Positions 8,169-51,694 of a stretch of DNA of 64,000 nt are shown one piece after another. Source of the DNA: Escherichia coli (GTDB lineage Bacteria > Pseudomonadota > Gammaproteobacteria > Enterobacterales > Enterobacteriaceae). The stretch lies in the NCBI RefSeq assembly GCF_030013595.1, contig NZ_CP122768.1, one strand, 5' to 3'. Each line of letters starts with the position of its first letter. The stretch's first letter is position 1. The notes under the pieces were generated by a model. The model had not been told where the DNA came from. It worked only from the letters and a program-made list of their open reading frames with translations, and searched no databases. Made by a program: the position numbers and the translations under genes.

Positions 8169-8222
8169 ACAATATGTACCTCCGGTGTACATATTACATG
8201 ATTGAAATGAACCTTCAAGACA

Positions 8223-8243: not shown

Positions 8244-8258
8244 GGTTTTAATTTCGTT

Positions 8259-8933
8259 ATGAAAACAATCCATGACATCCGGCGGTCTAACGCCCGAAAA
8301 CTGAGAGATGGTGTTGGAGGGAATTCTTCCTTTGCCACTATGATTGATCGCGAGCCAACCCAGACCAGCAGGTTTATGGGAGATGGTGCTACTAAAAATA
8401 TCGGTGACAGCATGGCACGACACATCGAAAAATGTTTCGACCTGCCTGTCGGATGGCTCGATCAAGAACACCAGACAACGAACATCACAAAAAAACCTGA
8501 TGTTTCAATCACTAATAAACAAATCACATTAGTCCCTGTCATATCATGGGTACAGGCCGGAGCATGGAAAGAAGTTGGATATTCTGAGGTTGATTTGAGC
8601 ACAGCAGAAACGTATCCCTGCCCTGTACCCTGTGGGGAAATGACTTATATCTTGCGGGTGATAGGTGATTCAATGATTGATGAGTACCGCCCGGGAGACA
8701 TGATTTTTGTCGATCCTGAAGTACCTGCCTGCCACGGTGACGACGTTATTGCATTGATGCACGATACAGGTGAAACCACCTTCAAAAGGTTGATAGAAGA
8801 TGGGACACAGCGTTATCTCAAAGCGTTAAACCCAAACTGGCCTGAGCCTTACATTAAGATCAACGGTAATTGCTCTATAATTGGAACTGTGATTTTCTCA
8901 GGAAAACCAAGAAGATACAAAATCAAAGCCTAA
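8259..8933 (+). CDS. CI-like prophage repressor (HTH plus S24 LexA-like peptidase), CohE-like
   Basis: 224 aa; C-terminal S24 region ...VIGDSMIDEYRPGDMIFVDPEV...; divergent from cro. Confidence 0.8.
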   Translation: MKTIHDIRRSNARKLRDGVGGNSSFATMIDREPTQTSRFMGDGATKNIGDSMARHIEKCFDLPVGWLDQEHQTTNITKKPDVSITNKQITLVPVISWVQAGAWKEVGYSEVDLSTAETYPCPVPCGEMTYILRVIGDSMIDEYRPGDMIFVDPEVPACHGDDVIALMHDTGETTFKRLIEDGTQRYLKALNPNWPEPYIKINGNCSIIGTVIFSGKPRRYKIKA

Positions 8934-8946
8934 TCAATGTTTATGA

Positions 8947-8968
8947 ACCTGCTTCGGCAGGTTTTTTT
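8947..8968 (+). terminator. Rho-independent terminator after the cI-like gene
   Basis: acctgc-ttcg-gcaggt hairpin followed by tttttt. Confidence 0.6.
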
Positions 8969-8972
8969 ATAC

Positions 8973-9000
8973 TTGACAATGTACCCACGAGATACATAAT
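8973..9000 (+). promoter_or_regulatory. Putative pL-like sigma70 promoter with operator repeats
   Basis: TTGACA (8973-8978), 16-bp spacer, CATAAT (8995-9000); direct repeats atgtacccacgaga / atgtacccaagaga share the TGTACC operator half-site. Confidence 0.45.
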
Positions 9001-9081
9001 GTACCCAAGAGAAACAACAAACAGGCAGGACGCCCACGAAGTAGCCGCCTGGGGCATATGAAGTCCAGGATGATTCGTTAG

Positions 9082-9110
9082 CAACAAAAAAGCGCCCTAC
9101 AGGACGCTTA
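9082..9110 (-). terminator. Rho-independent terminator for the minus-strand moron
   Basis: On the minus strand: agcgtcc-tgta-gggcgct hairpin followed by tttttgttg, 38 nt past the stop at 9148. Confidence 0.45.
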
Positions 9111-9147
9111 GCTCTTTAACAATCTGGATATCCACAACAGTAGTAAT

Positions 9148-9639
9148 CTACAGATTGCCGTTAAGTTTTCTGGACAACTCCTCAATGGATGGAGGCGATA
9201 CGTAATCCGGATTTTTATTCATCAGAAACTTATTTTCACAGTGGAGGCACCTGCTTTTATGAAAAAGCTCATCTTCGCTAACCGGGAATGGTTGAAGTAT
9301 CGATACTATCTTTTGTCCAAAACATTTTGGGCAAAGATGCATGGTTATGCTGCCACCGTTCACGATTACCTCCTTCGAGTATACAAAAGTACCCGACTCA
9401 AGTTGGTTAAGGATATAGCCTTCCGTCTGAGCCTCAAAGTTTTCGAATTCTGCAATTTTAGCTTTGAGAGAAGCATTTATTTCTTGATAAGAGCCCACCA
9501 GTTCAACGAGAGACACGCATTCGCGCTGAATAGACGCAAGCTTTGAGTTCAGCTCACCAATAGCCGCATTTACTTCAGCTTGAGTTTTTGCCTCGTTCAT
9601 TAGTTTTGCAATCTGGGCTGTTTCACGAATAGCCGTCAT
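9148..9639 (-). CDS. Hypothetical coiled-coil / C4 zinc-ribbon protein (moron between cI and early-left operon)
   Basis: 163 aa from Met at 9639; N-terminal coiled-coil-like region, C-terminal CPKC...(26)...CLHC; opposite to pL transcription; AT-rich; ORF track extends implausibly to 9927. Confidence 0.5.
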   Translation of the reverse strand: MTAIRETAQIAKLMNEAKTQAEVNAAIGELNSKLASIQRECVSLVELVGSYQEINASLKAKIAEFENFEAQTEGYILNQLESGTFVYSKEVIVNGGSITMHLCPKCFGQKIVSILQPFPVSEDELFHKSRCLHCENKFLMNKNPDYVSPPSIEELSRKLNGNL

Positions 9640-9949
9640 TGCTGCCGTTAATTCAGCGATCACATTGAATACTCTTATTGTTGTTGGGGATATCCAGATT
9701 AACCGAATCCTTGTTGTTGGGGAATAACCAGGTCCACCTCGCCTGATGTGGCTAAAAGCAGGCACATAACAGCTAAGTATTTTCAACCAGAGAGAATCCT
9801 TAGCGTTGTGGTGAATGCGGCTCAGCGCACGCGGGTTAAGGTTGAGGCTGACAGTCGACCTTCTGTGGATACCCACCCGCCTGGTGTGCAACCTTCGCCA
9901 GGCACCGGGAGGCACCCGGCACCACAACTTTATGCTGTGTGTAGTCCTG

Positions 9950-9996
9950 GCGGTACCAGTTTGTACCCTTGCTTCCGGCTGGTACCGTCCTTTTTT
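9950..9996 (+). terminator. Rho-independent terminator in GC-rich non-coding region
   Basis: cggtaccag ... ctggtaccg 9-bp stem followed by tcctttttt. Confidence 0.5.
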
Positions 9997-9997
9997 G

Positions 9998-10084
9998 CAA
10001 AACAGAGAAGAGCATCACCGGACGACGGGCTCATAACCCAATCCATCCGGGCGGCTGCCACCGCAGGTGTTCTTCTCTGTTTTG
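9998..10084. repeat. Long imperfect inverted repeat / RNA stem
   Basis: caaaacagagaagagca and tgttcttctctgttttg (17 bp, one mismatch) flanking ~53 bp of GC-rich sequence. Confidence 0.4.
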
Positions 10085-10133
10085 TGGAGAAACCAACCGA
10101 CCTTGCAGGGTCGATATGATGAGGAGCAGCAAA

Positions 10134-10496
10134 ATGGCTAGCGAACGCAGTACTGATGTGCAGGCATTTATCGGGGAGCTGGACGGCGGCGTATTTGAAA
10201 CCAAAATCGGCGCAGTTCTCAGTGAGGTCGCTTCCGGTGTGATGAACACGAAAACCAAAGGGAAGGTCTCACTCAATCTGGAAATCGAACCGTTTGATGA
10301 GAACCGTGTGAAAATCAAACACAAACTCTCATATGTTCGCCCAACTAACCGCGGGAAAATTTCCGAAGAAGACACCACCGAAACGCCGATGTATGTCAAT
10401 CGCGGTGGTCGCCTGACTATTCTGCAGGAAGACCAGGGACAATTACTGACTCTTGCCGGTGAACCTGACGGAAAACTCCGCGCAGCAGGTCGTTAA
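10134..10496 (+). CDS. YfdP-like prophage protein
   Basis: 120 aa; GAGGAG SD 7 nt upstream of ATG; first gene of the early-left operon, gene order as in CPS-53 yfdPQRST. Confidence 0.6.
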   Translation: MASERSTDVQAFIGELDGGVFETKIGAVLSEVASGVMNTKTKGKVSLNLEIEPFDENRVKIKHKLSYVRPTNRGKISEEDTTETPMYVNRGGRLTILQEDQGQLLTLAGEPDGKLRAAGR

Positions 10497-10561
10497 TATC
10501 GTTCGTAATAAACTGATTATTTATCTCATCACTGAATATCTTTATATAGTGAGGACTTATT

Positions 10562-11386
10562 ATGTCTCAGAACTTAGACGCAACCGCAATTAATCAAATC
10601 CATGCCCTTATTTCTGCTCAGAGTGTTAATGAAATTATCAGTAAGATTGGTGCCGATGCTGTGGCATTGCCTGAGAATTTCCGCATTCATGATCTGGAAA
10701 AATTTAATTTAAATCGCTTCCGTTTCCGTGGTGCACTTTCCACTGCCAGCATCGATGATTTTACCCGTTATTCTAAAGATCTTGCAGATGAAGGCACCCG
10801 CTGCTTTATCGATGCCGATAATATGCGTGCCGTCAGTGTGCTTAACCTGGGTACTATTGATGAGCCAGGTCACGCAGATAACACTGCCACTCTCAAACTG
10901 AAAAAGACAGCACCGTTCTCTGCTCTGTTGTCTGTTAACGGCGAGCGTAACTCCCAGAAGTCACTGGCAGAATGGATCGAAGACTGGGCCGACTACCTTG
11001 TGGGCTTTGATGCTAATGGTGACGCCATTCAAGCAACAAAAGCGGCTGCGGCAGTCCGTAAAATCACGATTGAAGCAAACCATACCGCTGATTTTGAAGA
11101 TAATGACTTCAGCGGCAAACGCTCCCTGATGGAGTCTGTCGAAGCGAAGACCAAAGACATTATGCCAGTGGCATTTGAATTTAAATGCGTTCCGTTTGAA
11201 GGTCTGAAAGAACGTCCGTTTAAATTACGCCTCAGCATTATCACTGGCGATCGTCCTGTACTGGTTCTGCGCATTATTCAGCTGGAAGCGGTGCAGGAAG
11301 AAATGGCTAACGAATTTCGTGATCTGCTTGTTGAGAAATTCAAAGACAGCAAAGTAGAAACCTTTATTGGTACTTTCACCGCCTGA
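10562..11386 (+). CDS. yfdQ: YfdQ family protein (DUF2303)
   Basis: 274 aa, same length and position as CPS-53 YfdQ; TGAGGA SD. Confidence 0.7.
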
Positions 11387-11397
11387 TTTCATTACTG

Positions 11398-11420
11398 CAA
11401 ATGCCCCTGCGGGGGCATTT
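11398..11420 (+). terminator. Stable stem-loop between yfdQ and yfdR (possible attenuator)
   Basis: aatgcccc-tgcg-ggggcatt perfect 8-bp stem; weak T tract. Confidence 0.35.
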
Positions 11421-11513
11421 ATGGAAACGTAATTAACTCAATAATCACCGGATGGTGAGGGCTTCCTTTTACCAGAATTCAGCGCGGTGCAGTGCATATA
11501 CGTGGAGAACAAA

Positions 11514-12050
11514 ATGTCATTTATTAAAACTTTTTCCGGGAAGCATTTTTATTATGACAAGATAAATAAAGACGACATCGATATTAACGATATCGCGGTT
11601 TCCCTTTCAAATATCTGTCGCTTTGCCGGTCATCTTTCGCACTTCTACAGCGTCGCCCAACATGCGGTTCTTTGCAGCCAGCTGGTGCCGCAGGAATTTG
11701 CTTTTGAAGCGTTAATGCATGATGCAACAGAAGCGTATTGCCAGGACATTCCCGCACCACTGAAACGCCTTCTTCCTGACTATAAACGGATGGAAGAAAA
11801 AATAGACGCCGTAATCCGTGAGAAATACGGGTTACCCCCAGTTATGAGTACACCCGTGAAATATGCCGATCTCATCATGCTGGCAACCGAACGCCGCGAT
11901 CTCGGGCTTGATGATGGCTCTTTCTGGCCTGTACTGGAAGGCATCCCGGCAACAGAGATGTTCAACGTGATTCCACTGGCACCGGGTCATGCCTACGGGA
12001 TGTTTATGGAACGTTTTAACGATTTATCGGAGTTACGCAAATGCGCATGA
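11514..12050 (+). CDS. yfdR: HD-domain 5'-deoxynucleotidase YfdR-like
   Basis: 178 aa from MSFIKTF; HD-family residues (...QHAVLCSQ..., ...HDATEAY...); ORF track start at 11487 is an upstream extension. Confidence 0.7.
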   Translation: MSFIKTFSGKHFYYDKINKDDIDINDIAVSLSNICRFAGHLSHFYSVAQHAVLCSQLVPQEFAFEALMHDATEAYCQDIPAPLKRLLPDYKRMEEKIDAVIREKYGLPPVMSTPVKYADLIMLATERRDLGLDDGSFWPVLEGIPATEMFNVIPLAPGHAYGMFMERFNDLSELRKCA

Positions 12051-12403
12051 ATGTTTTCGAAATGGAAGGGTTTCTTCGCGGGAAATGTGTACCGCGAGAT
12101 CTGAAAGTGAACGAAACAAATGCTGAGTACCTGTTACGTAAATTCGACGCGCTTGAAGCTAAATGTGCGGCACTGGAAAACAAAATAATACCAGTGTCAG
12201 CTGAACTGCCACCAGCAAATGAAAGTGTTCTGTTATTTGATGCTAACGGAGAAGGCTGGCTGATTGGCTGGCGTTCTCTCTGGTACACCTGGGGACAAAA
12301 AGAAACCGGAGAATGGCAGTGGACATTTCAGGTCGGGGACCTTGAAAACGTCAATATCACTCACTGGGCAGTAATGCCAAAAGCACCGGAGGCTGGAGCA
12401 TAA
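12041..12403 (+). CDS. yfdS: YfdS-like prophage protein (DUF551)
   Basis: 120 aa, follows yfdR as in CPS-53. Confidence 0.65.
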   Translation: MRMNVFEMEGFLRGKCVPRDLKVNETNAEYLLRKFDALEAKCAALENKIIPVSAELPPANESVLLFDANGEGWLIGWRSLWYTWGQKETGEWQWTFQVGDLENVNITHWAVMPKAPEAGA

Positions 12404-12708
12404 TGACCACATTTACCAATAAAGAACTGATTAAAGAAATCAAAGAACGAATCAGCAGCCTAGAGGTTCGAGACGATATTGAGCGCCGTGCTTATGAAAT
12501 CGCACTCGTATCTCTGGAAGTAGAGCCAGATGAACGCGAAGCCTATGAATTATTCATGGAAAAGCGTTTCGGTGACTTAGTAGATCGTCGGAGAGTAAAA
12601 AACGGCGATAACGAATACATGGCATGGGATATGACTCTCGGTTGGATCGTCTGGCAGCAACGAGCTGGTATCCATTTTTCAACAATGACACAGCAAGAGG
12701 TGAAATAA
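12403..12708 (+). CDS. yfdT: YfdT-like prophage protein
   Basis: 101 aa, coupled to yfdS (ATGA-type overlap). Confidence 0.65.
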   Translation: MTTFTNKELIKEIKERISSLEVRDDIERRAYEIALVSLEVEPDEREAYELFMEKRFGDLVDRRRVKNGDNEYMAWDMTLGWIVWQQRAGIHFSTMTQQEVK

Positions 12709-13079
12709 TGGAGCCATACAGCCTCACACTCGATGAGGCCTGTCAGTTTCTTAAGATATCCAGACCAACCGCCACCAACTGGATACGAACAGGCCGCCTA
12801 CAGGCAACACGTAAAGATCCAACCAAGCCAAAATCTCCTTACCTCACAACACGGCAAGCTTGCATTGCGGCGCTTCAGTCTCCGCTGCATACTGTCCAGG
12901 TGAGCGCGGGTGATGGCATAACAGAGGAAAGAAAATGTCACTCTTCCGCAGAAATGAAATATGGTATGCCTCGTATTCGCTCCCGGGCGGGAAACGAATT
13001 AAGGAATCTCTTGGCACAAAGGACAAGCGGCAAGCTCAGGAGTTGCACGACAAGCGAAAAGCAGAACTCTGGCGAGTAG
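12708..13079 (+). CDS. Putative excisionase (AlpA/Xis-like HTH); 3' end uncertain, frame overlaps int
   Basis: Starts TAATG-coupled to yfdT; N-terminal HTH-like segment [28 protein letters not shown]; frame stays open to 13079. Confidence 0.45.
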
Positions 13080-14098
13080 AAAAGCTAGGGGATTTACCTG
13101 ATGTCACTTTTGAAGAGGCCTGCCTAAGATGGCTTGAGGAAAAAGCTGATAAAAAATCTCTCGATTCAGATAAAAGCCGGATTGAGTTCTGGCTTGAACA
13201 TTTTGAGGGTATAAGGCTTAAAGATATCTCGGAGGCAAAGATTTACTCTGCTGTAAGCAGAATGCATAACAGAAAGACGAAAGAAATATGGAAACAGAAA
13301 GTTCAGGCCGCCATCAGGAAAGGTAAAGAACCGCCTGTTTATGAACCAAAGCCAGTATCAACTCAGACAAAGGCAAAGCATCTTGCCATGATAAAGGCCA
13401 TTCTCCGTGCTGCAGAACGCGACTGGAAGTGGCTGGAAAAAGCGCCTGTCATCAAGATACCAGCGGTCAGAAACAAGCGAGTCAGATGGCTGGAAAAGGA
13501 GGAAGCAAAACGCCTTATTGATGAGTGCCCCGAACCACTGAAATCTGTCGTCAAGTTTGCGCTGGCAACTGGTCTGAGAAAGTCGAACATCATAAATCTG
13601 GAATGGCAACAAATCGACATGCAGCGACGAGTTGCCTGGGTGAATCCAGAAGAGAGCAAATCAAACCGCGCCATTGGTGTGGCGCTGAACGATACCGCCT
13701 GTAAAGTGTTGCGTGATCAAATAGGCAAGCATCACAAATGGGTGTTTGTACATACCAAGGCGGCTAAGCGAGCAGATGGAACATCAACGCCTGCGGTCAG
13801 GAAGATGCGCATCGACAGCAAGACATCATGGCTATCAGCTTGTCGTCGTGCAGGAATTGAAGATTTCCGTTTCCATGACCTCAGACACACCTGGGCAAGC
13901 TGGCTGATCCAGTCAGGCGTCCCATTATCTGTGCTTCAGGAAATGGGCGGATGGGAGTCCATAGAAATGGTTCGTAGGTATGCTCACCTTGCGCCTAATC
14001 ATTTGACAGAGCATGCAAGGAAAATAGACGACATTTTTGGTGATAATGTCCCAAATATGTCCCACTGTGGAATTATGGAGGATATAAAGAAGGCGTAA
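12935..14098 (+). CDS. intD: Tyrosine integrase (IntD-like), adjacent to argU
   Basis: 387 aa; C-terminal catalytic region ...[17 protein letters not shown]...VRRYAHL; ends 16 bp from the tRNA 3' end. Confidence 0.85.
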
Positions 14099-14113
14099 CT
14101 GATTGAATTGTAA

Positions 14114-14190
14114 TGGCGCGCCCTGCAGGATTCGAACCTGCGGCCCACGACTTAGAAGGTCGTTGCTCTATCCAACTGAGCTAAGGGCGC
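14114..14190 (-). tRNA. argU: tRNA-Arg (anticodon UCU), argU
   Basis: Reverse complement GCGCCCTTAGCTCAGTTGGATAGAGCAACGACCTTCTAAGTCGTGGGCCGCAGGTTCGAATCCTGCAGGGCGCGCCA, 77 nt, cloverleaf-compatible. Confidence 0.95.
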
Positions 14191-14432
14191 GTTGATACCG
14201 CAATGCGGTGTAATCGCGTGAATTATACGGTCAACCCTTGCTGAGTCAATGGCTTTTGATCTGGTTGCTGAACAAGTGAACGACCGCGTCTGATTTTCTG
14301 ATTTATTTCGCTATAGCGGCAAACAAACGTACATCGCTGCGCGTCTGAATCAAGAAAACTCGTATTTTCATGTATCAAAGTACAATTTCCCGCCCTAACG
14401 GAAAATTGTCCGATCCAATGAGACTGGTAACT

Positions 14433-15065
14433 ATGAAACCAACGTCGGTGATCATTATGGATACTCATCCTATCATCAGAATGTCTATTGAAGTTCTGTT
14501 GCAAAAAAACAATGAATTGCAAATTGTCCTGAAAACGGATGATTATCGCATAACCATCGATTATCTCCGAACCCGTCCTGTTGATTTAATCATTATGGAT
14601 ATAGACTTGCCCGGAACAGACGGTTTTACCTTCCTGAAAAGGATCAAACAAATCCAGAGCACAGTGAAAGTATTATTTTTATCATCGAAATCAGAATGCT
14701 TTTATGCTGGCAGAGCGATACAAGCTGGTGCTAACGGTTTTGTCAGTAAATGCAATGATCAGAATGATATTTTTCACGCCGTTCAGATGATCCTCTCCGG
14801 ATACACTTTTTTTCCCAGCGAAACGCTCAACTATATAAAAAGCAATAAATGCAGTACGAATAGTTCAACGGTCACGGTGCTATCTAATCGTGAAGTGACC
14901 ATATTACGTTATCTGGTTAGCGGATTATCCAATAAAGAAATTGCCGATAAGTTATTACTTAGCAATAAAACAGTTAGTGCGCATAAATCTAATATTTATG
15001 GCAAGCTAGGTTTGCATTCAATTGTAGAGCTTATCGACTACGCCAAATTATATGAATTAATATAA
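14433..15065 (+). CDS. fimZ: Fimbrial response regulator FimZ (LuxR-type)
   Basis: 210 aa from MKPTSVIIMDTHPI; receiver domain plus C-terminal LuxR HTH. Confidence 0.9.
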   Translation: MKPTSVIIMDTHPIIRMSIEVLLQKNNELQIVLKTDDYRITIDYLRTRPVDLIIMDIDLPGTDGFTFLKRIKQIQSTVKVLFLSSKSECFYAGRAIQAGANGFVSKCNDQNDIFHAVQMILSGYTFFPSETLNYIKSNKCSTNSSTVTVLSNREVTILRYLVSGLSNKEIADKLLLSNKTVSAHKSNIYGKLGLHSIVELIDYAKLYELI

Positions 15066-15067
15066 TA

Positions 15068-15583
15068 TTAATTGTAATTGATCATAAATATCGCATCCGC
15101 TTTCGCCACACCTGGCTGAACACCGCTGGCTAACGCTCGATAATTGGCAAAAAAGTTTAGTGTGACATTGCCATTTGCATCTACTTCCTCAGTCGGACTC
15201 GCCTCCCCCAGTGCGAGCCGGGAGCGATCGCTATTACGTAATTCGATGGCGACGGTTTGTGCCATTGCGGGATCATCCAGAGCCAGCAGGTTGGCATCAG
15301 ATGCCGGCGTTCCCGTAAATAAAATCGCAACTGAACCCGGAGGACATCCCTCCAGCCGCAGGCTAAAAGGGACGAGTGCCGTGGTATCGCCAGCGCTCAG
15401 TAATTGTGTCGTAGGCCATCTGCCTAAATCTACCGTCTTATCCTTATCCGCTGTGTTTACGGTACAGGAGAAATCAACAACGTTACCGTGCAAATTGATA
15501 TTAATCGTTCCTAAAGGGTCAACTGCCCATCCACTGGAACTCCACAGTAGCCCGCAGAAACAGCTAAAGAGTACTCTTCTCAT
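15068..15583 (-). CDS. sfmF: Fimbrial minor subunit SfmF
   Basis: 171 aa from MRRVLFSCF; fimbrial subunit fold; ORF track upstream extension ignored. Confidence 0.85.
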   Translation of the reverse strand: MRRVLFSCFCGLLWSSSGWAVDPLGTININLHGNVVDFSCTVNTADKDKTVDLGRWPTTQLLSAGDTTALVPFSLRLEGCPPGSVAILFTGTPASDANLLALDDPAMAQTVAIELRNSDRSRLALGEASPTEEVDANGNVTLNFFANYRALASGVQPGVAKADAIFMINYN

Positions 15584-15593
15584 TCTCCGTACC

Positions 15594-16601
15594 TCATTGA
15601 TAATCGACGCGTAAATACCCCAGCGCGCTAAACGGCCCTTCGGTCGGTTTTTGACCGGTAATACTGATAGGCCAGGCGCGAAGTGTGACATTGGCTGCCG
15701 CAGCTGCATCCAGACGGAAAGGAATAACGCTATTGAGATCGTTAGGCGTGATCGGCGTATCGTTCTGATCGGCCACAATAAAACCTAAATCCTGATTGTC
15801 CGACACCATCGCCTGACCAGAAACGGCACTGGCTTCCAGACGCATTGTTAAATAAGCCTGCGCAGCAACATTCGTACATTTGATCGCAATGCTCTTGGTT
15901 TGCGGCATGACACCAGCTGGTCGATTCCCCGGCCCTGCCGCACTAAATAACGATGCGCCGATATCACCAAAATCAAATTCAACAATTTGCCCGGCATTTA
16001 ATTCGCAGTTTTGCGGTACTTCAACCCGGCCACCAAAACTAATGGTATAAACAGGTGTAACCAACGGATCGTTAGGCGTTGATGTCACATACACGGTAAA
16101 CATCACCTGTCTGGGGATCTCCACCATGTTAATAAAGGGACGAATAACCTTTAAACGAAATATCAAACGAGAATCCATCACCCCGAACGGAAGGTTTTGC
16201 GAAACGTTAGGATCTGTTCCCATACGGATATAATTTTGCGGGGGAAACTGAATATCCATCACGCTATCAACCAGACTCATCGCACCTAATAGATAATCAT
16301 TTAATTGCATATATTTATAATTATCGATAGTTTCCTGAACAATAAAGTTGGTGACATAACTACGGTATGTATAATTCACCAGCGTGCCGGGTGGACAAAT
16401 TGCTGACACACCTACCCAGCCGGATTTTTCCGGTAAAACAACAATCTGGCCTGGCTGGTTATTGGTGCTATTAAAGACATTTGAGAGATCATAGTGTTCA
16501 TCTTCTGCTACGCCAGTACTATTTGCACAAACAGTAGCCCAGGATATGTTTGCCAGACACAAACATGCCATTGCCAATAATAATCTGCAGATTATCTTCA
16601 T
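15594..16601 (-). CDS. sfmH: Fimbrial adhesin-like subunit SfmH
   Basis: FimH-like two-domain protein with signal peptide; start may be the Met 10 codons downstream. Confidence 0.8.
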   Translation of the reverse strand: MKIICRLLLAMACLCLANISWATVCANSTGVAEDEHYDLSNVFNSTNNQPGQIVVLPEKSGWVGVSAICPPGTLVNYTYRSYVTNFIVQETIDNYKYMQLNDYLLGAMSLVDSVMDIQFPPQNYIRMGTDPNVSQNLPFGVMDSRLIFRLKVIRPFINMVEIPRQVMFTVYVTSTPNDPLVTPVYTISFGGRVEVPQNCELNAGQIVEFDFGDIGASLFSAAGPGNRPAGVMPQTKSIAIKCTNVAAQAYLTMRLEASAVSGQAMVSDNQDLGFIVADQNDTPITPNDLNSVIPFRLDAAAAANVTLRAWPISITGQKPTEGPFSALGYLRVDYQ

Positions 16602-16613
16602 TGATAATTTCCT

Positions 16614-19223
16614 TTATGAGCCAGAATGTGTGCAAACTGCCGAAATAACAGTGACGGCTTGCTGTAAGCTTTGCTTCGGCAATACATAGTGCGCAATGCA
16701 GCGTGAGTTCGCGCCGTCTCCCCACTGAACCAGTAATTCACCAGACAATGGCGCACCACTTAAATAAACTTGCCCGTCATCACCCACCATACTGGTTATT
16801 CCGGTACTGTTTTCCCGTACCAGTGATCCAAACGGCACCGGTTTTCCGCCCTGGGTAACGGTAATGAGCGCCCGCACGCCTATGCGGGTATCAAAATTGG
16901 CACGAACCAACGCGCCTTGCGTCGGCACAACACTGCTAATATTTTTTTCAACATCGATGGAATTCCCCATCGTATTGGTATCAAGCGCGATACGGTTATA
17001 CCGATAAACCGTGGCATACGGCATCACCGCATAGCCGCGCCAGTCGGTTAAAATGCCAGTTTGATTTTCAATGCGTACACCGCCTGCGCCAGGCGCTTTA
17101 ATCAAAACATTGGTATCCCCTAAAGGCTGGCTCAGCGTTATGCCATTTTCATGTCCGACCACACCGCCAGACAGCTGCCAGTTAACGTCATGTTGATCGC
17201 GGTCGTAGTTATACCCGACCCCCAGCGTACCGTAAGCGGCCTGCCAGTTTGCCGTAGCGCTGCCCGTATACCCATTATTCGAGGTATCGCCCTGGCTTAC
17301 GTGATAACTCAGGTTGTGGCCTTCCAGTAAGGTCCCACCTACACCTGCCAGCCAGCTATTTTGCCCGTTGCTGTTACGGTTGGCGTTAAAGGAGGCATAA
17401 GCGCGGTCGAGCGCATTTTCCCGGGTGTAGCGACGTTTGGTCAAAACATTGAAAGGCACTGAAACATTAAGTCCGACAATACGTTCGTTATCGGGGATCC
17501 CTACAGATTCATTCCACGAAAATGAGAGCGAATAACTGATGCCAACCCAGCTGCTGGTATACCCCACCTGATACCACGTATCTGAATCCGAAGTATTCCA
17601 GTATTTTTGATGGGTACCAGAAATATAAAGCGAGCCAAAGTCATTAAGTGATTGTGAAATATTTAACTGCAAACGGTCTTTACGGCTAAAGCGTAAATTG
17701 TGGTAATTCACGATTATCGGTTCATCGCGATACTCACCGTCATAATCGTAATCATATTCGTACCCCTCCATACGACGATACGCAACATCATCAAGGGTAT
17801 AAAAACCTTGTGTCGAATAGCGGTAACCCATTAACTGAAAATTGGTGCCGAAAGTGTTCATTGATTTCGCATAGAGGAAGCGAATAGAATCCCCCTCATG
17901 ACGACTATCGTCGGCTAACTGACTGCGCGCATGGGTCACATCCAGAGATACCGCCCCCCAGTTTCCGAGATTGCGCCCCAGCCCTAATAAAAAGGCGGTG
18001 TAATTGGCAGATAATTGCGTCCCGCCGTAGGCAGTAAATTCCTGTGGTAAACCGCCGAGTGCCGTGCCCTGAAAAAAGAAAGGTGATGATTGCTGACTAT
18101 TACCGCTACGAAAATCGCCCGCCGTCAGGTCAAATTTGAAACGCCCTTCGCGTTGTAAAATTGGCACTGTTGAATACGGAATCGTGTAATTCTGCTGATT
18201 GCCATCGCGCTCGTCGATGGTGACATCCAGATCGCCATTTGAAGATGTCGGGTGCAAATCTGTAATTTCAAAAGCGCCGGGGGAAACATAGCTTTGATAG
18301 ATAATAAAACCATTTTGCCGAATCGTTAGCTGGGCCGCCGTACGGGCAATCCCACGTACCGTTGGGGCAAACCCTTGCTGGCTATCAGGATACATATTAT
18401 CGGAAGAATAAAGCCGTACACCTCGAAATCCGACGCCATCGAAAATATCACTCCCTGTATTACCGTCTCCCATTACCAGTTCACTTTTCAGCGGAATAAT
18501 GGCGCGCTGTACCCAGGTGCCAATATTATTCCACTGTTCTGAATGATATCCATTTCCGCGAAAATAGTTCCAGGAACCATTGTTGCGTAAACGCCACGGG
18601 CCAATATTAATCCCGCTGAGTTCACTAAAAAAATAGCTATCGTTACCATTACCTCTGTTACCGGTGAAATTATAGTTCAGGAGTAAAGCAGGAATACCTT
18701 CATCCCACTCTTCAGGCGGAATGTAACCGTGAGCGCTACTCAACAACGCTATCTGAGGAATAGTGATGTTCAGGCGCATCGCTGCAAAATCAAAGTTAAT
18801 TGTGGCATCAGGTACAGCTTTCAGTAAATTGATGCATTTATTATTTTGCTGCTGGGCTAACTCAGGGAATGCACTGCTATTAAGGCCAATTCGTTCAAGG
18901 AGTGCCTGGTTAAAACAAGGCATTAACCCACCTGATTTATCACCTGTATTTACTGTCGTCGATTCAAATACGATATCCTGTGAACCAATGAACTCATCAT
19001 TACGCCAGAGATCCACCCGATACACGCCCGCAGGTTGATGATTACCTCTCTCAAAGCGCGATAAATCAGCAACGGATGTGCCATTCTCTAATAAAAATGC
19101 CGGGTTGAAATAACTTTCCGCATAGCTTAAAAAGGAGGGTAAAATGGCAAGAGATGAATAACAAATTCCGGCCAGACACCAGGTATACCTCTGCGGAATA
19201 TCCGTAGTAGTGGGTATTTTCAT
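16614..19223 (-). CDS. sfmD: Fimbrial usher SfmD
   Basis: 869 aa usher family outer membrane protein. Confidence 0.9.
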
Positions 19224-38254: not shown

Positions 38255-39616
38255 TTACTGCTGATGTTTAAGGATAAATTGACCTTTCGGCGCAACAGGG
38301 AAGCCCTGTTCGATGTCGTAAATCACATCACCACGTAAGATGGTTTTCGTGATACGCGCGCCAATGGTACGGCCAACATACGGGCTGACTTTGTGGCGAT
38401 ATTCCAGATCGTCATTGGTAAGAACATAGCTGCTATTCGGCTGAATGAAGACGAAGTCGGCATCTTTTCCTGGGGCGATACGGCCTTTTTGCTGCAGACC
38501 GAAAATATCCGCCGCGTTGGTGGCCATTAGTTTGCCAAACATCGGCAAAGACATACCGCGTTTCTGTACCGCTTCATCGAACATCACGTCCATGCAGCTT
38601 TGCAGACCAGCGATACCGCCCCATGCTTCCATGATGTTGCCTGCTTTCATTTCAGGCGGGCATGGAGAGTGGTCGGAAACCAGGCAGTCAATTTCACCGT
38701 TAAACAGTTTTTCCCACATGCCTTTCTGGTTTTCCAGATCGCGGATCGGCGGTGAACACTTCGCCAGGGTGCCAATTTTTTCGAACTGATCGGTATCCAG
38801 CACAAAATAATGTGGGCAGGATTCACAGGTAACATCCTGACCTTCCTGACGTGCACGAGTGACTTCCTCAACACCTTCCGGGCTGCTGACGTGGCAAACG
38901 TGCAGACGGCAACCAGCGACTTTCGCCAGGTACAGCACGCGGCGAATCGCTTCCACTTCGGTAAATACCGGGCGCGAAGCCACATAGTCATGAGCGGTTA
39001 CGCGACCTTCACGCTTCGCTTCTTCGCCCAGTGCGTCACAGATCAGCGCGTTTTCGCAGTGCACCAACACCGGCTGGCCTAGTTCACCCAGCTTCTGCGC
39101 ACCTTTGAAGAATTGCCAGTCATTGACGTCACGGAAGTCGTTGTCGATACCGCGATCGCCACAGGTCGCAACGAAGCATTTGAAGCCGACAACGCCCACT
39201 TCATCCAGCTCATGCAGACGGTCAATGTTGTAAGACACCAGGCCACCGAGTTGTGCCGCATCGATAGTCAGCTTGCCTTTAGCGGCATCGAACTTCAGTT
39301 CAATTGAAGCGCGGTCAACCGTTGCAGGCAACTGGTTGAGCGGCATTTCGATCATGGTGGTGATACCGCCTTTTGCCGCTGCGCGAGTACCGGTTTCATA
39401 ACCTTCCCAGTGGCTACGACCTGGCTCAGAAATATGGGTATGCGCATCGACCATGCCCGGCGAAACCACCAGACCAGACGCATCCATAACGTCTTTTGCA
39501 TCGCCCAGATCCTGACCGATAGCAGCAATTTTTCCGCCTTTAACGGCGATATCTACAACGCGAGCTTCGTTTTCTAAAATAACGGTGCCGTTTTTAATGA
39601 TTAAATCAAAAGACAT
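38255..39616 (-). CDS. allB: Allantoinase AllB
   Basis: 453 aa cyclic amidohydrolase, [17 protein letters not shown]... Confidence 0.95.
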
Positions 39617-39675: not shown

Positions 39676-41130
39676 TTAACCTATGGTTTTTTGTTCTCCT
39701 GTTTTTTCTGCTGTTGTACGTTTCTTTAATAAGGCGTAGGCCGCAAAGGCGACGATGACGCCGACAAACCATGAAACACGCGATAACGGTTCCATAAAGG
39801 GAATAAACTTACCGCCAAGAGATAAAATAACGGCCACCAGAGTTACTGAGAACGCTGTGAGGTTAAAGCCGTTATCGTAATATTTAAAATCACCTGGTGC
39901 AGTGTACAGCTCGTCAAGATTAATTTGCCCACGCATCACCACAAAATAATGCGCCATCATCACACCAATTACCGGACCAAGCATTCCGCCAATAATATCG
40001 AGGAACAGATAAATACTGTCCTGATTTTCCATTAATTTCCACGGGCAGATCAGCAGGCTGATAATACTGGCAATCAGTACGCCGTTTTTATAGGTCAGTT
40101 TCGTCGGTGCAATAGCGGCAATCTGATAACCGGCCGGAATAATATTACCGGTGGCGTTAGTGGAAATGGTCGTCATCAGAATAACCAGTACCGCAAAGAA
40201 CGAGGCGAACAGACTGTCCCAACGCTGAACAATATCCAGCACGTTCCAGGTATCTGCGCCGTAATGAATACTGGCTCCGGCAATAATACATACCCCGGCG
40301 ACCGCAAACAGAATATAGGCCACAACTAAACCCAGCGTTTGCCCCAGCGCCTGCTCACGAAACGAGTGGGCGTTTTGCGTAAAGTCGGATGCGCTCACCG
40401 CCGGTGCCGCCCAGACCGCAACCACCGCGTTTATCACCACCAGAAACAGGAAGCCACTGTTTTCTGCTTTCTGAATACCGCTCGGGATATAGTCAAAGAT
40501 TGGACCGATCCCAACCAGCGAAACCGCCCAAATCGCCATGCCGCCGAAGACGATATAGATGCACGGGTTAAGAATGGCGGTGAATTTATTTAAAACTTTG
40601 CCGCCGCCAAAACCAATACCAACGTTTACCAGCCAGAAGAGTAAGAAAGTAATTAAGCCCGGTAGAGAAAGGCCTAACAGGGTGAAATCGCCACCGAGAG
40701 TCAAAAATCCCGGCCAGATTTTGCCAATCAGAATCAAGCAGGCCAGTGACCCCGCGTAACATTGCAGGCCAAACCACATAATGGCAGCAATTCCGCCCCT
40801 TAATAATCCGGGAAACAGTGCACCACGTACGCCGTAAGAAGCACGCAGGATCATGGAAAATGGTACGCCGTATTTACTGCCCGCAGCACCGTTTAATACC
40901 ATTACCGCGGCAATGAAAAAGGCACTGAGGATAATTGCCAGCATAATACTAAAGGTAGACAAGCCGAGAATAAAAAAGCCGCCAACCATCACATAATGGG
41001 GAACGTTATGAACCGAACCCATCCATAAGGTAAAATAGTTAAATGTTTTCCAGGTCCGCTGGCTTTGCGTTTTCGGCAATAGATCTTCGCTATAGCCGCG
41101 TTGCTGGAATAGTTTTCTCTGATGTTCCAT
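39676..41130 (-). CDS. ybbW: Allantoin permease YbbW (NCS1 family)
   Basis: 484 aa multi-pass membrane protein. Confidence 0.9.
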   Translation of the reverse strand: MEHQRKLFQQRGYSEDLLPKTQSQRTWKTFNYFTLWMGSVHNVPHYVMVGGFFILGLSTFSIMLAIILSAFFIAAVMVLNGAAGSKYGVPFSMILRASYGVRGALFPGLLRGGIAAIMWFGLQCYAGSLACLILIGKIWPGFLTLGGDFTLLGLSLPGLITFLLFWLVNVGIGFGGGKVLNKFTAILNPCIYIVFGGMAIWAVSLVGIGPIFDYIPSGIQKAENSGFLFLVVINAVVAVWAAPAVSASDFTQNAHSFREQALGQTLGLVVAYILFAVAGVCIIAGASIHYGADTWNVLDIVQRWDSLFASFFAVLVILMTTISTNATGNIIPAGYQIAAIAPTKLTYKNGVLIASIISLLICPWKLMENQDSIYLFLDIIGGMLGPVIGVMMAHYFVVMRGQINLDELYTAPGDFKYYDNGFNLTAFSVTLVAVILSLGGKFIPFMEPLSRVSWFVGVIVAFAAYALLKKRTTAEKTGEQKTIG

Positions 41131-41399
41131 AAATCCCTCTTAATTTCACGTATCGAATAACGTTGTTTTAATCTAGCTATGAGGAACAAATAAAATAAAA
41201 AATATTATTTTTAATGCTGAAGCAACATCTTTGGCTGCTTTCTTTTTTTAATATTGCTGGCCGATTCATTTTCTGATATCGGCCATTTTTATTGCGGGTA
41301 TCAGGCCAGTTTATGGTTAGCCATTAATTCCAGCGCCTGCACTAACGCAGAGTGATCCAACTGGCTGCCACCGTTTGCCGCACAGGTATTAAATAACTC

Positions 41400-42179
41400 C
41401 TAGCAGGTCGCAGTGTTTGGCAGGTTCAGCGCAAGTGCTTTCGCACTTTGCAGTGCCAGGTTGAGATCTTTCTGGTGCAGCGCAATTTTAAAACCTGGAT
41501 TAAAGGTGCGTTTAATCATGCGCTCACCGTGAACTTCCAGAATACGTGAGGAAGCAAAGCCGCCCATCAGCGCCTGGCGCACACGTACCGGATCCGCTCC
41601 GGCTTTTGAAGCAAATAGCAGGGCTTCAGAAACCGCTTCAATATTGAGCGCCACGATAATCTGATTTGCCACTTTGCAGGTTTGACCGTCGCCGTTACCG
41701 CCCACGAGGGTGATATTTTTACCGAGCAGTTCAAACAGCGGTTTAACACGTTCAAATACCGCTTCGTCGCCGCCAACCATAATCGACAACGTCCCTTCAC
41801 GCGCGCCGATTTCACCGCCGGAGACGGGCGCATCGAGATAATCGCCGCACAGTTCATTCACCTGACGAGCGAAACGTTTAGTTTCGATCGGGGAAATGGA
41901 GCTCATATCAACAATGGTTTTGCCCTTCAGCGAGGTTTTGGTACAACCATTTTCACCAAACAGAACTTCTTCAACCTGTGGCGTATCCGGCACCATAATA
42001 AAAATGATGTCCGATGCTTCCGTTACCTGGCGCGCAGTTTCAACACTGACGGCACCCAGTGACAGTAATTCATCAGCAACCGGACCAATGGTTGTGACAT
42101 GCAGTTGATGACCGGCACGCGCCAGATTAATGGCCATCGGTGTACCCATAATGCCTAAGCCAATAAATCCCAGTTTCAT
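41400..42179 (-). CDS. glxR: Tartronate semialdehyde reductase GlxR, C-terminally truncated by an in-frame TAG (259 aa vs 292 aa full length); possible pseudogene
   Basis: Stop at 41400-41402; the same frame continues with ELFNTCAANGGSQLDHSALVQALELMANHKLA to TGA at 41301-41303. Confidence 0.85.
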   Translation of the reverse strand: MKLGFIGLGIMGTPMAINLARAGHQLHVTTIGPVADELLSLGAVSVETARQVTEASDIIFIMVPDTPQVEEVLFGENGCTKTSLKGKTIVDMSSISPIETKRFARQVNELCGDYLDAPVSGGEIGAREGTLSIMVGGDEAVFERVKPLFELLGKNITLVGGNGDGQTCKVANQIIVALNIEAVSEALLFASKAGADPVRVRQALMGGFASSRILEVHGERMIKRTFNPGFKIALHQKDLNLALQSAKALALNLPNTATC

Positions 42180-42278: not shown

Positions 42279-43055
42279 TTAACGGTACGGATCCATCCAG
42301 CGTAAACCGGCTTCCGTGGTGGTTTGGGGTTTATATTCACACCCAACCCAACCGTTGTAGTCAGAATTTTCAATTACCGTAAAGAGATATTCGTAATTAA
42401 TTTCTCCGGTTCCCGGTTCGCCGCGATGCGGATTATCGGCAATTTGCAGGTGACCAATTTTATCCGCCCATTGAGTCATAGTGTTGGTTAATTCACCTTC
42501 CATCCGCTGCATGTGATAAATGTCATACTGAATTTTCAAATTGCAGCAACCAACATCATCAATCAGTTTCAGCGCCTGCCGAGTTCCGGTGAGATGGAAA
42601 CCAGGAATATCAAAATGGTTGATAGGTTCAATCAGTAATAAAATATCTTCTTTCATCAGCATATTCGCGGCATAACGCAGGTTTTCTACAAGCGTTGTGT
42701 GAATCTGTTCACTGCTGAAACCAGCCGGCGTTTTACCAACCAGACAGTTAATTTTTTTATTACCCAGCGCACGAGCATAACGAATCGCTGCTGCTACGCC
42801 ATCCCGAAACTCTTCTTCACGACCAGGAATACAAGCAATACCCCGCTCGCCCGCCGCCCAGTCACCTGCCGGTAAATTGTGCAACGTATGTTCGAGTTTA
42901 TTACTCGCCAGCACCTGTTTTAATTCTTCAATGTCATAGTCATAAGGGAACATAAATTCAACGCCGCGAAAACCACACTGCGCAGCTTTCTCAAAACGGG
43001 CGAGAAAATCATATTCACCAAATAACATCGATAAATTAGCAGAGAAACGTAACAT
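42279..43055 (-). CDS. hyi: Hydroxypyruvate isomerase Hyi
   Basis: 258 aa TIM-barrel. Confidence 0.9.
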   Translation of the reverse strand: MLRFSANLSMLFGEYDFLARFEKAAQCGFRGVEFMFPYDYDIEELKQVLASNKLEHTLHNLPAGDWAAGERGIACIPGREEEFRDGVAAAIRYARALGNKKINCLVGKTPAGFSSEQIHTTLVENLRYAANMLMKEDILLLIEPINHFDIPGFHLTGTRQALKLIDDVGCCNLKIQYDIYHMQRMEGELTNTMTQWADKIGHLQIADNPHRGEPGTGEINYEYLFTVIENSDYNGWVGCEYKPQTTTEAGLRWMDPYR

Positions 43056-43067: not shown

Positions 43068-44849
43068 TTATTCATAGTGCATGAAGCAGGTTTCAGTCGG
43101 TGCGTCCACTGCGTTATCGGCGATATCTTCAAATTCCATGACGTTATCCAGTTCGCTGCCCATCGAAATATTGGTCACACGCTCGAGAATAACTTCCACG
43201 ACTACCGGTACCCGATATTGCGCCATTAAGGCTTTCGCCTGTTCAAAGGCTGGTGCAATATCTTCCGGTTTGAAAACGCGAATCGCTTTACAACCTAAAC
43301 CTTCCGCTACTTTTACGTGGTCGACGCCGTAACCGTTCACTTCACTGGAGTTAATATTTTCGAACGCGAGCTGTACGCAGTAATCCATATCAAACGCGCG
43401 CTGCGACTGGCGAATCAGCCCCAGATAGGCGTTATTGACCAGTACATGGATGTACGGAATGTTGAACTGTGCGCCAACGGCTAATTCTTCAATCAGGAAC
43501 TGGAAGTCGAAGTCACCGGAAATCGCCACCACATTGCGCTCTGGATCAGCGGCACACACGCCCAGCGCCGCCGGAATGGTCCAGCCCAACGGGCCTGCCT
43601 GCCCACAGTTGATCCAGTGGCGGTCTTTAAAGACATGCAGCATTTGTGCCGCAGCGATTTGTGACAGACCAATGGTGGTGACATAACAAACATCGCGACC
43701 AAAGGCTTTGTTCATCTCTTCATACACGCGCTGCGGTTTCACCGGCACATTGTCGAAGTGGGTTTTGCGCAGCAAAGTGCGTTTGCGCTGCTGGCAGTCG
43801 GCGACCCATTCTTTACGACACGGCAGACGACCCGCTTTTTGCATCTCCTGCGCCACTTCAACCAGCAGTGTCAGCGCCGCTTTAGCATCAGAGACAATGC
43901 CGAGATCCGGACACAGCACGCGGCCAATTTGCGTCGGCTCAATATCGATATGAACGATTTTGCGCCCTTCGGTGTATTTCTCTACCGAACCGGTATGACG
44001 GTTCGCAAAACGGTTACCGATACCAAACACCATGTCGGACGCCAGTAGCGTTGCGTTACCGTAACGATGCGCGGTTTGCAGACCCACCATCCCGGCCATC
44101 AGTTCGTGGTCATCCGGGATACAGCCCCAGCCCATCAGCGTTGGGATCACCGGAACGCTGGTCAGTTCAGCAAACTGTTGTAGCAGTGCAGCTGCGTCAG
44201 CATTGATTACCCCGCCCCCGGCAACAATCACCGGACGTTCGGCCTGAATTAACATTTCTACCGCTTTTTCGATCTGCATACGGCTGGCAGCAGGTTTGTA
44301 GACCGGCAGCGGTTCGTACATGTCAGGATCAAACTCGATTTCCGCAACCTGAACGTCGAACGGTAAATCCACCAGTACCGGACCCGGACGACCAGAACGC
44401 ATCAGGTGAAACGCCTGTTGCAGCACGCGAGGCACCAGCGCCGCTTCACGAACTGTAACCGCCATTTTGCTGACCGGTTTAGCAATTGCTTCAATATCTA
44501 CGGCCTGAAAATCTTCTTTATGCAGACGGGCGCGCGGTGCCTGGCCGGTAATGCACAGAATAGGAATGGAATCAGCAGAAGCGGAATAGAGCGCGGTGAT
44601 CATGTCCGTGCCCGCAGGACCGGAAGTCCCCAGACATACGCCGATATTCCCTGCCGTTGCGCGGGTATAACCTTCCGCCATGTGCGAAGCACCTTCCACA
44701 TGACGCGCCAGAATGTGACGAATACCGCCGTGCTTACGCATCGCTGAGTAGAACGGATTGATTGCAGCTCCCGGAACGCCGAAGGCGGTGGTGATACCTT
44801 CTTTCTCCAGCACATACATTGCCGCGTCAACGGCTCTCATTTTTGCCAT
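43068..44849 (-). CDS. gcl: Glyoxylate carboligase Gcl
   Basis: 593 aa from [18 protein letters not shown]; ThDP enzyme; AGGAAT SD; ORF track upstream extension ignored. Confidence 0.95.
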
Positions 44850-49345: not shown

Positions 49346-51694
49346 TCACCCCGCAAACTGCCTGAACAGCGCCTTACCCTTAACCAGTCGCGCGCCCAGC
49401 CAGCCGCCGCAAAGCGACAGCAGCAGCGCACCGCTGCACGGCAGAACAATCCACAATCGCCAGTCTGGCTCCCACGGAAAATCAAACACTTTCGCCTGCA
49501 ACACTGCCAGCGCCGTTTCCGCACCAATTGCGGCCACCAGGCCAGAAACAAACCCGAGCATGGCGAACTCACACCACAACGTGGTACGCAGCAGTTTTTT
49601 CCCCGCACCGAGTGTGCGCCACACCACCAGCTCCTGATGACGCTGACGCATTCCCACCTGCACCTGTGCCAGCAACAGCAACATACCGCAGGCGGTGACC
49701 AGCACCACCATCACCTCCAGCGCCCGACTTACCTGCTCCAGCACCTGACCGACCTGTTTTAAAATCGCGCCAATGTCTAACAGGCTAATGGTAGGGAACT
49801 GGCGGTTGAGTTGCGTCAACATGCCGTTGCCATTCTCCCAGCGGAAACTGGTAAGCCAGCTCTGCGGTTGCCCGTCTAATGCCCCTTCCGGGAAAATAAA
49901 ATAGAAATTAGGCCGCAGACTTTCCCAGTCCACTTTGCGCAGGCTGGTCACTTTAGCGCGGAACTCCTGGGTATCGCCCATAAAGGTGACTGTATCGCCG
50001 AGGCCAACGTTTAAGCGTTTCGCCAGCCCCTCTTCCATCGACACTTCATCGGCTTTTGGCGGCCAGTTACCGGCGACAATCGGATTATGATCGGGCCGCG
50101 TATTTTGCCAGGTAAGATTAAGTTCGCGATTGAGCGCCTCATCTTCATTGCCTTCTGTCGGCTTGCCGTTAATCGCCGTCAGTCTCGCCCGCACCACCGG
50201 ATAAAATGATTCCGGGACTATCTGATGTTCCGCGAGGAACGCTTTTAGCGGTGCTACCTGTTCTGTGGCGATGTTGATTAAAAAGTAGTTCGGGCTTTCT
50301 GGCGGTAGCTGCTGTTGCCAGCGGTCGAGCAGATCGCCACGCAATACCAGCAACAGCGCCAGCAGCATAAAGGAGAGCGAAAATGCCGAAAGCTGGCTTA
50401 ACGTTGACCACGGCTGACGTAACAGGCGGCTAACCGCCAGGCGCAGAGGCAGCGATTTCAGCGTCATGCGGCGAAGTACATTCAGCAGCATGCTGCCACC
50501 CATTAATCCGGCGAGCAGCACCACAACCACCACACTGACAATCGGCAGATAAAACTTCAGCGGCCAGACGTTCGCTACCACATCATTACGTAATACGCGT
50601 AAAGGCTGCGTTGCCAGCAACAAGCGGTATGGTCGTAGCCCCACCAGCAGCGAGATAACCGTCATGGTGCCCAGCGCCCATAGCCACGGCCAGAGGCTGG
50701 CTGGCGGTAGTGCAGCAGGCAGAACGGGCTTGAGCAGCACCATCAACACGTTTTCGAACAACAGGCCTATCGCCCCGCCGGTAACGGCTGAAAGCGCCAG
50801 CACCATCAACCACTGACCGACGATTAGCTTACGCAGTTGCGCTCGCCCTGCCCCCAGCGTTTTGAGGATCGCCACCAGATCGTAGCGACTGCGACAGTAA
50901 TGATTCATCGCCACCGCCACCGCTGCCACTGCCAGCAGCAAGGTCAGAAGCGCCGAAAGCAGCAGGAACTGTTGCGAGCGTTCCATCGAGCGCCCCAGCG
51001 CGCCTTCGTCCTGTTCCAGACCGTACCAGCGTTGTTCGGGTTTAAGCTGGGGTAACAACCATTTCTCATAGCCGTCGAGCTGGTTCTCGTTGCCGCCGAA
51101 TTTATAGCGCCAGGTGACCCGACTTCCCGGCTGCACGGCTCCGGTTTTATCGACATCCGCCAGATTCATCATCAGACGCGGAGCCATCTGGAAGGGGTTA
51201 AAACCGGAATCCGGTTCCTGAATCACTTCTCCGGCAATCCGCAAGGTGGCATCACCCACGTCGATGGTGTCGCCTGTTTTCAGGTTAAGCAGTGCCATCA
51301 GGCGTGGGGCCAGCAATACGCTGCCCGCCTGCGGTTTCAGGCCAGGGGGATTAGTTTGCAGATCGCCATACATCGGGTAGATATCATCCACCGCTTTGAC
51401 GTTCGCCAGCTGCGGTGTGTCGCCTGCAAATGTCATGGTGGCGAAAGTCAGCTGCTTGCCGACTTTCAGGCCGCGCTTTTGCGCTTCCTCCAGCCACGCT
51501 TGCGGCACTTCGCGCGAACTGCGCAACGCCCGATCGCCCGCCATAAACTCCCGGCTTTGCTGGCTTAAGCCCTTCTCCATGCGATCGCTGATATTGCCCA
51601 GCGCCAGCACGCAGGCCACCGCCAGGCTTAGCGCCAGCCAGACAATTAATAGCGACGGCGAGCGCCATTCGCGCCAGAACCAACGTGCAATCAT
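49346..51694 (-). CDS. ybbP: ABC transporter permease YbbP (FtsX-like)
   Basis: 782 aa multi-pass membrane protein; 4-nt overlap with ybbA. Confidence 0.9.
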   Translation of the reverse strand: MIARWFWREWRSPSLLIVWLALSLAVACVLALGNISDRMEKGLSQQSREFMAGDRALRSSREVPQAWLEEAQKRGLKVGKQLTFATMTFAGDTPQLANVKAVDDIYPMYGDLQTNPPGLKPQAGSVLLAPRLMALLNLKTGDTIDVGDATLRIAGEVIQEPDSGFNPFQMAPRLMMNLADVDKTGAVQPGSRVTWRYKFGGNENQLDGYEKWLLPQLKPEQRWYGLEQDEGALGRSMERSQQFLLLSALLTLLLAVAAVAVAMNHYCRSRYDLVAILKTLGAGRAQLRKLIVGQWLMVLALSAVTGGAIGLLFENVLMVLLKPVLPAALPPASLWPWLWALGTMTVISLLVGLRPYRLLLATQPLRVLRNDVVANVWPLKFYLPIVSVVVVVLLAGLMGGSMLLNVLRRMTLKSLPLRLAVSRLLRQPWSTLSQLSAFSLSFMLLALLLVLRGDLLDRWQQQLPPESPNYFLINIATEQVAPLKAFLAEHQIVPESFYPVVRARLTAINGKPTEGNEDEALNRELNLTWQNTRPDHNPIVAGNWPPKADEVSMEEGLAKRLNVGLGDTVTFMGDTQEFRAKVTSLRKVDWESLRPNFYFIFPEGALDGQPQSWLTSFRWENGNGMLTQLNRQFPTISLLDIGAILKQVGQVLEQVSRALEVMVVLVTACGMLLLLAQVQVGMRQRHQELVVWRTLGAGKKLLRTTLWCEFAMLGFVSGLVAAIGAETALAVLQAKVFDFPWEPDWRLWIVLPCSGALLLSLCGGWLGARLVKGKALFRQFAG

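Follow-up and report, generated by a model that had tools for sequence, protein, structure and literature searches.

In Escherichia coli, tartronate semialdehyde is reduced by GlxR or by GarR, and an alternative route exists in which Hyi isomerises it and GhrA/GhrB then carry out the reduction (PMC5964204). Loss of glxR is therefore a lesion for which the cell has substitutes. The kind of lesion considered here also has a described counterpart. Amber hotspots occur at the second C of CCAGG and are ascribed to the deamination of 5-methylcytosine to thymine (PMC12606429). Very-short-patch repair by Vsr partly counters the change from CCAGG to CTAGG, and correction of CTAGG to CCAGG is reportedly stimulated by Vsr (PMC2715241). 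A literature search found no published work on natural glxR nonsense alleles. Below, we describe one such allele and discuss its context, its recurrence and its likely consequences.

Within the window, the whole 64,000-nucleotide stretch of E. coli DNA analysed here, the glxR reading frame runs on the minus strand from an ATG at 42179 to a TAG at 41402-41400 and encodes 259 amino acids. Reading through this TAG adds 32 codons (ELFNTCAANGGSQLDHSALVQALELMANHKLA) before a TGA at 41303-41301, giving a whole frame of 292 codons plus stop, or 879 nt. An earlier note on this DNA had given these coordinates, the same residue string and a loss of 33 residues, all of which are exact when the frame is re-translated. 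RefSeq annotation of orthologous loci and gcl-hyi-glxR-allW-allB synteny identify the gene as glxR. In an alignment to K-12 glxR (b0509), the reference allele has 879 nt, encodes 292 aa (the length given in that note) and carries CAG (Gln260) at codon 260, with 29 nt differences from the window allele overall. The closest wild-type allele is that of WP4-S18-ESBL-07, which is the same in HCP5S3_I2, ST70 O7:H15 and M114 and differs from the window over all 879 nt solely by C to T at nt 778. The comparisons with K-12 and with this allele bear out the proposal of a single-base CAG to TAG change and the recovery of 292 aa on readthrough. The mutated base is position 41402, which is T on the minus strand and A on the plus strand, where outgroups have G. 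Residues 1-259 of the window product are identical to wild-type WP_024043899.1, and the 3' remnant beyond the stop is undegraded, with the same sequence as wild type; it codes for the remainder of helix 254-271 and for helix 276-287. In this genome, glxR is probably a pseudogene of the internal-stop type. The features under discussion are as follows.

41301-42179, minus strand: full glxR frame (2-hydroxy-3-oxopropionate / tartronate semialdehyde reductase 2), 879 nt with one internal stop
41400-42179, minus strand: truncated glxR open reading frame, 259 codons plus amber stop
41400-41402, minus strand: premature amber TAG at glxR codon 260, CAG throughout in outgroups
41399-41403, minus strand: former Dcm site in glxR, ancestrally CCAGG and now CTAGG, inner C to T
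41301-41399, minus strand: orphaned glxR 3' remnant, 32 sense codons plus the original TGA
43068-44849, minus strand: gcl, upstream in the operon, intact
42279-43055, minus strand: hyi, upstream in the operon, intact
39676-41130, minus strand: allW, downstream of glxR, intact
38255-39616, minus strand: allB, downstream, intact
35152, plus strand: allE P113L, a second Dcm-site C>T in the window lineage, CCAGG>CTAGG

The gene occupies the orthologous slot of the gcl-hyi-glxR-allW-allB operon, in which the coordinates of gcl and hyi were mapped over from a related locus. When 45 genes were compared with their counterparts in the nearest relative, glxR alone proved disrupted, which gives no support to the idea that the allantoin cluster is decaying generally in this genome. 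Neither a minus-strand terminator nor a promoter-like site was found at the glxR-allW junction, and because this junction lacks a terminator, strong polarity of the stop on allW and allB would be unlikely.

The region is ~2.9% diverged from K-12, and its nearest relative is a pig isolate, HCP5S3_I2, which differs from the window by 18 SNPs and one 66-bp indel over 46.7 kb. When the SNPs were polarised with five outgroups, 11 proved private to HCP5S3_I2 and 4 derived in the window lineage, leaving 3 without polarity. The four window-derived changes are lpxH D173A (25496), allE P113L (35152), allW N45H (40998) and glxR Q260*, and all of them alter proteins; three of the four fall in the allantoin/glyoxylate regulon. 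The exact 259-aa product is already recorded as NCBI STE02653.1 (UniRef100_A0A376H5V9) and is found in 33 contigs and 55 index blocks. One assembly, GCA_036246605.1, matches the window at 100% identity across 6,780 bp. The TAG is also present in a second assembly, GCA_002925925.1, and in the read set SRR14510387, there together with the ancestral allW N45 and a few private SNPs. Since these two carriers lack allW N45H, the glxR stop is older than the later diversification of the lineage, and N45H postdates it. The TAG is thus genuine and vertically inherited.

Several further features of the window were recorded in passing. The window is a mosaic, its glxR allele being common to ST70/M114-type strains and its flanks ~2% different, and the closest matches to positions 1-17000 are STEC genomes at 99.6%. 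The sole tRNA gene, argU (tRNA-Arg(UCU), 14114-14190), adjoins a lambdoid prophage remnant with an intD integrase, a porin and a DUF968 gene, as well as fimbrial genes. The ybbP product (putative ABC transporter permease, 49346-51694, minus strand) has 782 aa, whereas HCP5S3_I2 and WP4-S18-ESBL-07 have one of 804 aa. This shortening is a 66-bp in-frame deletion with its junction near 50484-50491, and the flanking short direct repeat AGCAGCAT suggests replication slippage. The alignment with HCP5S3_I2 ends at window position 63717, within a type I secretion permease/ATPase gene, and the adjoining giant siiEA-like adhesin gene is frameshifted in that isolate.

The sequence around the stop points to a specific mutational origin. 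In wild type, codon 260 lies in the context ACC TGC CAG GAG, which contains CCAGG, a Dcm site (CCWGG), and the window carries ACCTGCTAGGAG in place of the wild-type ACCTGCCAGGAG. The changed base is the inner cytosine, which is the base methylated by Dcm, and for this reason spontaneous deamination of 5-methylcytosine is its most likely origin. The dcm-vsr pair is found in 5358 of 5426 complete E. coli genomes; dcm lies outside this window and is likely to be present in the strain. The same signature appears among the neighbouring substitutions. Of the 18 SNPs found against HCP5S3_I2, 3 are C>T changes at Dcm target positions: glxR Q260* and allE P113L arose in the window lineage, and the third, in fetB, is synonymous and arose in the pig isolate. 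As these target positions make up 0.5% of the region, the enrichment is 34-fold (binomial P = 9e-5). Within the window lineage itself, two of the four polarisable changes in ~47 kb are CCAGG>CTAGG.

The same stop is found in other lineages. A 33-mer query in which every 28-base word was forced to include the T, searched against the 5426 complete genomes, recovered Q260* in three of them: STEC 2013C-4830, STEC 2012C-4227 and O157:H7 F8492. PGAP/RefSeq labels glxR in all three as a pseudogene with an 'internal stop', and their glxR backbones show 22 and 39 other nucleotide differences from the window. In a larger public collection, Q260* truncated products occur on two further protein backbones, represented by 125 and 114 contigs. 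Altogether, Q260* is seen on at least 10 distinct glxR nucleotide haplotypes, indicating independent recurrence.

How far this recurrence reflects the Dcm site was examined by comparison with other glutamine codons. There are 12 Gln codons in glxR that lie one C>T from a stop, three of them within CCAGG (Q51, Q202 and Q260). All ten of the truncation products looked up are present in public data, and the mere presence of a product is consequently uninformative. Raw contig counts were dropped as a measure of hotspot strength since they mix contig-end artefacts and clonal expansion with independent events. Contig-end run-offs pose as truncations in 5/10 cases for Q281* and 8/10 for Q244*, and because many proteins end before Q244 or Q281 at contig ends, counts of exact truncated proteins overstate nonsense alleles. 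The 50-aa product of Q51*, for instance, occurs in at least 1000 contigs and at least 1690 index blocks, a count inflated by a short N-terminal peptide common to many backbones; the number of nucleotide haplotypes behind it is at least 5. The comparison instead used stops confirmed in the DNA and the number of different haplotypes carrying them, each site being sampled alike (24 contigs read and at most 10 places per site). At the Dcm sites, 7/8 stops were real for Q51* (at least 5 haplotypes in the sample), 10/10 for Q202* (at least 9) and 10/10 for Q260* (at least 7, plus 3 on other protein backbones). At the non-Dcm sites, the corresponding values were 2/10 for Q244* (at least 1 haplotype in the sample), 10/10 for Q273* (at least 5, forming 2-3 groups) and 5/10 for Q281* (at least 4). 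The resulting Dcm excess in haplotype counts is a modest one, about two-fold and in the predicted direction, from samples that are small, capped and non-random and with statistics that ignore phylogeny. Counting against a strong Dcm effect, nonsense alleles recur at non-Dcm Gln codons as well (Q281* and Q273*).

The truncated protein retains its Rossmann domain and active-site residues and loses the end of its helical C-terminal domain. Pfam divides full-length GlxR into NAD_binding_2 (residues 2-160) and NAD_binding_11 (residues 163-283). The Rossmann domain (PF03446) is complete in the window product, residues 2-160 matching profile positions 1-161 of 161 with E = 1.4e-48. PF14833 (NAD_binding_11) is incomplete, the truncated product spanning profile positions 1-98 of 122, so that the stop removes 24 of 122 positions, including the conserved G..DHSA segment, or about 1.7 helices. 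The active-site residues S120, G121, G122, K169, N172 and Q173, which correspond to those named in PMC12694930, are invariant or nearly so and are all retained. An AlphaFold2 model (83 sequences, pLDDT 98) places the C-terminal helices at 164-192, 197-205, 212-223, 232-248, 254-271 and 276-287; in this model the stop interrupts the fifth (254-271) about six residues in and removes the sixth (276-287). Among solved structures the Salmonella GlxR orthologue 1YB4 is the closest, and in all 17 solved relatives the alignment extends through residues 276-291. Across diverged full-length homologues, residues 260-285 are kept in 84 of 90, with conservation in the lost segment of 83% for G270, 78% for D275 and 58-66% for H276/S277/A278. 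Judged from the profile and the model, truncated GlxR is probably unstable, misfolded or inactive. The reduced tartronate semialdehyde reductase activity proposed in the earlier note is plausible on the same grounds, with some residual activity possible because the catalytic residues are retained.

Taken together, these observations suggest the following course of events. A 5-methylcytosine at glxR nt 778 (41402) would have deaminated spontaneously to thymine and evaded very-short-patch repair. The resulting C-to-T transition would have converted the Gln260 codon CAG into an amber codon, pseudogenising glxR in a non-K-12 lineage, and the amber allele would then have been passed on vertically. 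The 259-aa protein would keep the Rossmann domain and the catalytic Ser, Lys and Asn-Gln residues next to an incomplete all-helical C-terminal domain, and would probably be unstable or inactive. Tartronate semialdehyde would then be routed via GarR or via Hyi and GhrA/GhrB, with the rest of the allantoin/glyoxylate cluster intact. Loss of glxR would be tolerated because these enzymes can substitute for it, and its effect on fitness may be close to neutral. We assign a probability of roughly 85% to this reading as a whole, that is, an inherited amber from deamination at a Dcm site, a truncated protein that is probably dead and a loss that is tolerated through back-ups.

Other readings of the stop concern its reality, its spread and the reason for its recurrence. 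A sequencing or assembly error, which the earlier note had kept as an option, would require a change of one base only, and the window glxR has no 100% match in any complete RefSeq genome. This option is refuted by independent assemblies that share the TAG: the exact product is present in GCA_036246605.1, GCA_002925925.1, SRR14510387 and the STE-prefixed NCBI record, one assembly being fully identical over 6.8 kb and two slightly diverged data sets still carrying the stop, so that an error is scarcely credible. A single origin of Q260* followed by spread between lineages through homologous recombination would be in keeping with the visible mosaicism of the locus, where the allele is common to ST70/M114 strains with flanks 2% different, and with the near-invariance across E. 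coli of the last ~180 nt of glxR, in which short conversion tracts leave little trace. Against it, three haplotypes are identical to the window around the TAG for just 14, 47 and 50 nt, and the 237-nt tract found in most other TAG haplotypes is the same in wild-type K-12. For every TAG haplotype checked there is a wild-type counterpart distinguished from it by nt 778 alone (K-12 itself being one such counterpart), and there is a single carrier among many O157:H7 genomes. Spread by recombination was rejected since TAG carriers share no longer a tract with the window at this position than wild-type controls do, and we regard it as highly improbable. An unlikely reading, albeit one with several observations in its favour, is that loss of glxR is positively selected, a convergent adaptive inactivation to which the Dcm site merely supplies the mutation. 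The universal presence of the ten single-step Gln-to-stop products in public data would fit such selection, as would the emergence of five of the six sites examined at the DNA level on several backbones each and the occurrence of Q51* on at least 1000 contigs. The additional breakage of allB in the three complete Q260* genomes and the two further window-derived changes in allE and allW point the same way. With hundreds of thousands of E. coli sequenced, however, a dispensable gene should show every nonsense allele; the rest of the cluster is intact in the window, and Q260* occurs in just 3 of 5426 complete genomes. A more elaborate form of selection would treat the three in-frame CCAGG/CAG sites (Q51, Q202 and Q260) as a selection-maintained, methylation-dependent reversible switch through which glxR is repeatedly turned off and possibly back on. 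If this were true, deamination would create the amber, Vsr-driven correction of CTAGG to CCAGG would bias reversion, and the switch would act on the glycerate branch of glyoxylate/allantoin metabolism. We consider such a switch very improbable.

The remaining alternatives grant the mutation and question its effect. The 259-aa GlxR might still be a working reductase and the allele a neutral length polymorphism, given that the Rossmann domain and the active-site residues all lie upstream of the stop, that the allele has persisted while the lineage gained further SNPs and that the 3' remnant is undegraded. In the AlphaFold2 model, however, helix 254-271 is cut and helix 276-287 deleted; the lost segment contains conserved positions and is kept by 84 of 90 homologues and by every solved structure, and PGAP calls the same allele a pseudogene. 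A functional truncated enzyme is therefore unlikely. Full-length GlxR might alternatively be made, as the earlier note also allowed, if the amber were read through by a suppressor tRNA of the supE/supF type or by high basal readthrough. The 32 downstream codons are intact and in frame, and suppression in laboratory E. coli affects amber more often than the other stops. Suppressor alleles are nevertheless rare in natural isolates, and the ~2.9% divergence from K-12 means that the strain is no K-12 laboratory (supE) derivative. A recent origin of the stop explains the intact remnant equally well. No suppressor tRNA with a CUA anticodon was found within the 64-kb window, where argU is the only tRNA gene. 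Amber suppression in this strain is unlikely, and readthrough as the explanation of the locus is more improbable still than a working truncated enzyme.

The finding that glxR carries Q260* is correct and biologically ordinary, the allele and the mechanism both being already on record. To what the earlier note held, the analysis adds the Dcm-methylated base, the recurrence across lineages and the functional back-ups of GlxR. In practical terms, the glxR annotation of this genome should read pseudogene (internal stop), and metabolic reconstructions of the lineage should route tartronate semialdehyde via GarR or Hyi/GhrA/GhrB. The allele also serves as a clear example, from natural populations, of the textbook deamination hotspot at Dcm sites, and it illustrates that when nonsense alleles recur across E. 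coli population genomes and look 'convergent', some of them may reflect mutation bias and not selection.

Compared with wild-type GlxR (K-12 b0509, the solved 1YB4 and the paralogue GarR, 1VPD), the window product shares the two-domain beta-hydroxyacid dehydrogenase architecture, the active site and the operon context. Wild-type GlxR has residues 260-292, whereas the window product lacks them and its C-terminal domain is incomplete. STEC 2013C-4830, STEC 2012C-4227 and O157:H7 F8492 resemble the window in having the same TAG at codon 260 in the same operon position. In those genomes, however, allB (allantoinase) is also a pseudogene, with lesions that are frameshifts or internal stops, which suggests a broader pathway decay in the three complete Q260* lineages; no such decay is seen in the window, where allB and every cluster gene besides glxR are intact. 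The closest precedent for the mutation itself is the set of lacI amber hotspots (Coulondre, Miller, Farabaugh & Gilbert 1978; via PMC12606429), which share with glxR Q260* the GC-to-AT change at the second C, the conversion of CAG to TAG and independent recurrence at a site normally countered by very-short-patch repair (PMC2715241). The lacI hotspots come from a laboratory mutant collection, whereas glxR Q260* affects a metabolic gene in natural populations, and its methylation and deamination are deduced from the sequence context. A roughly 10-fold excess is reported for the lacI hotspots, compared with ~2-fold by haplotype counts for Dcm over non-Dcm sites in glxR.
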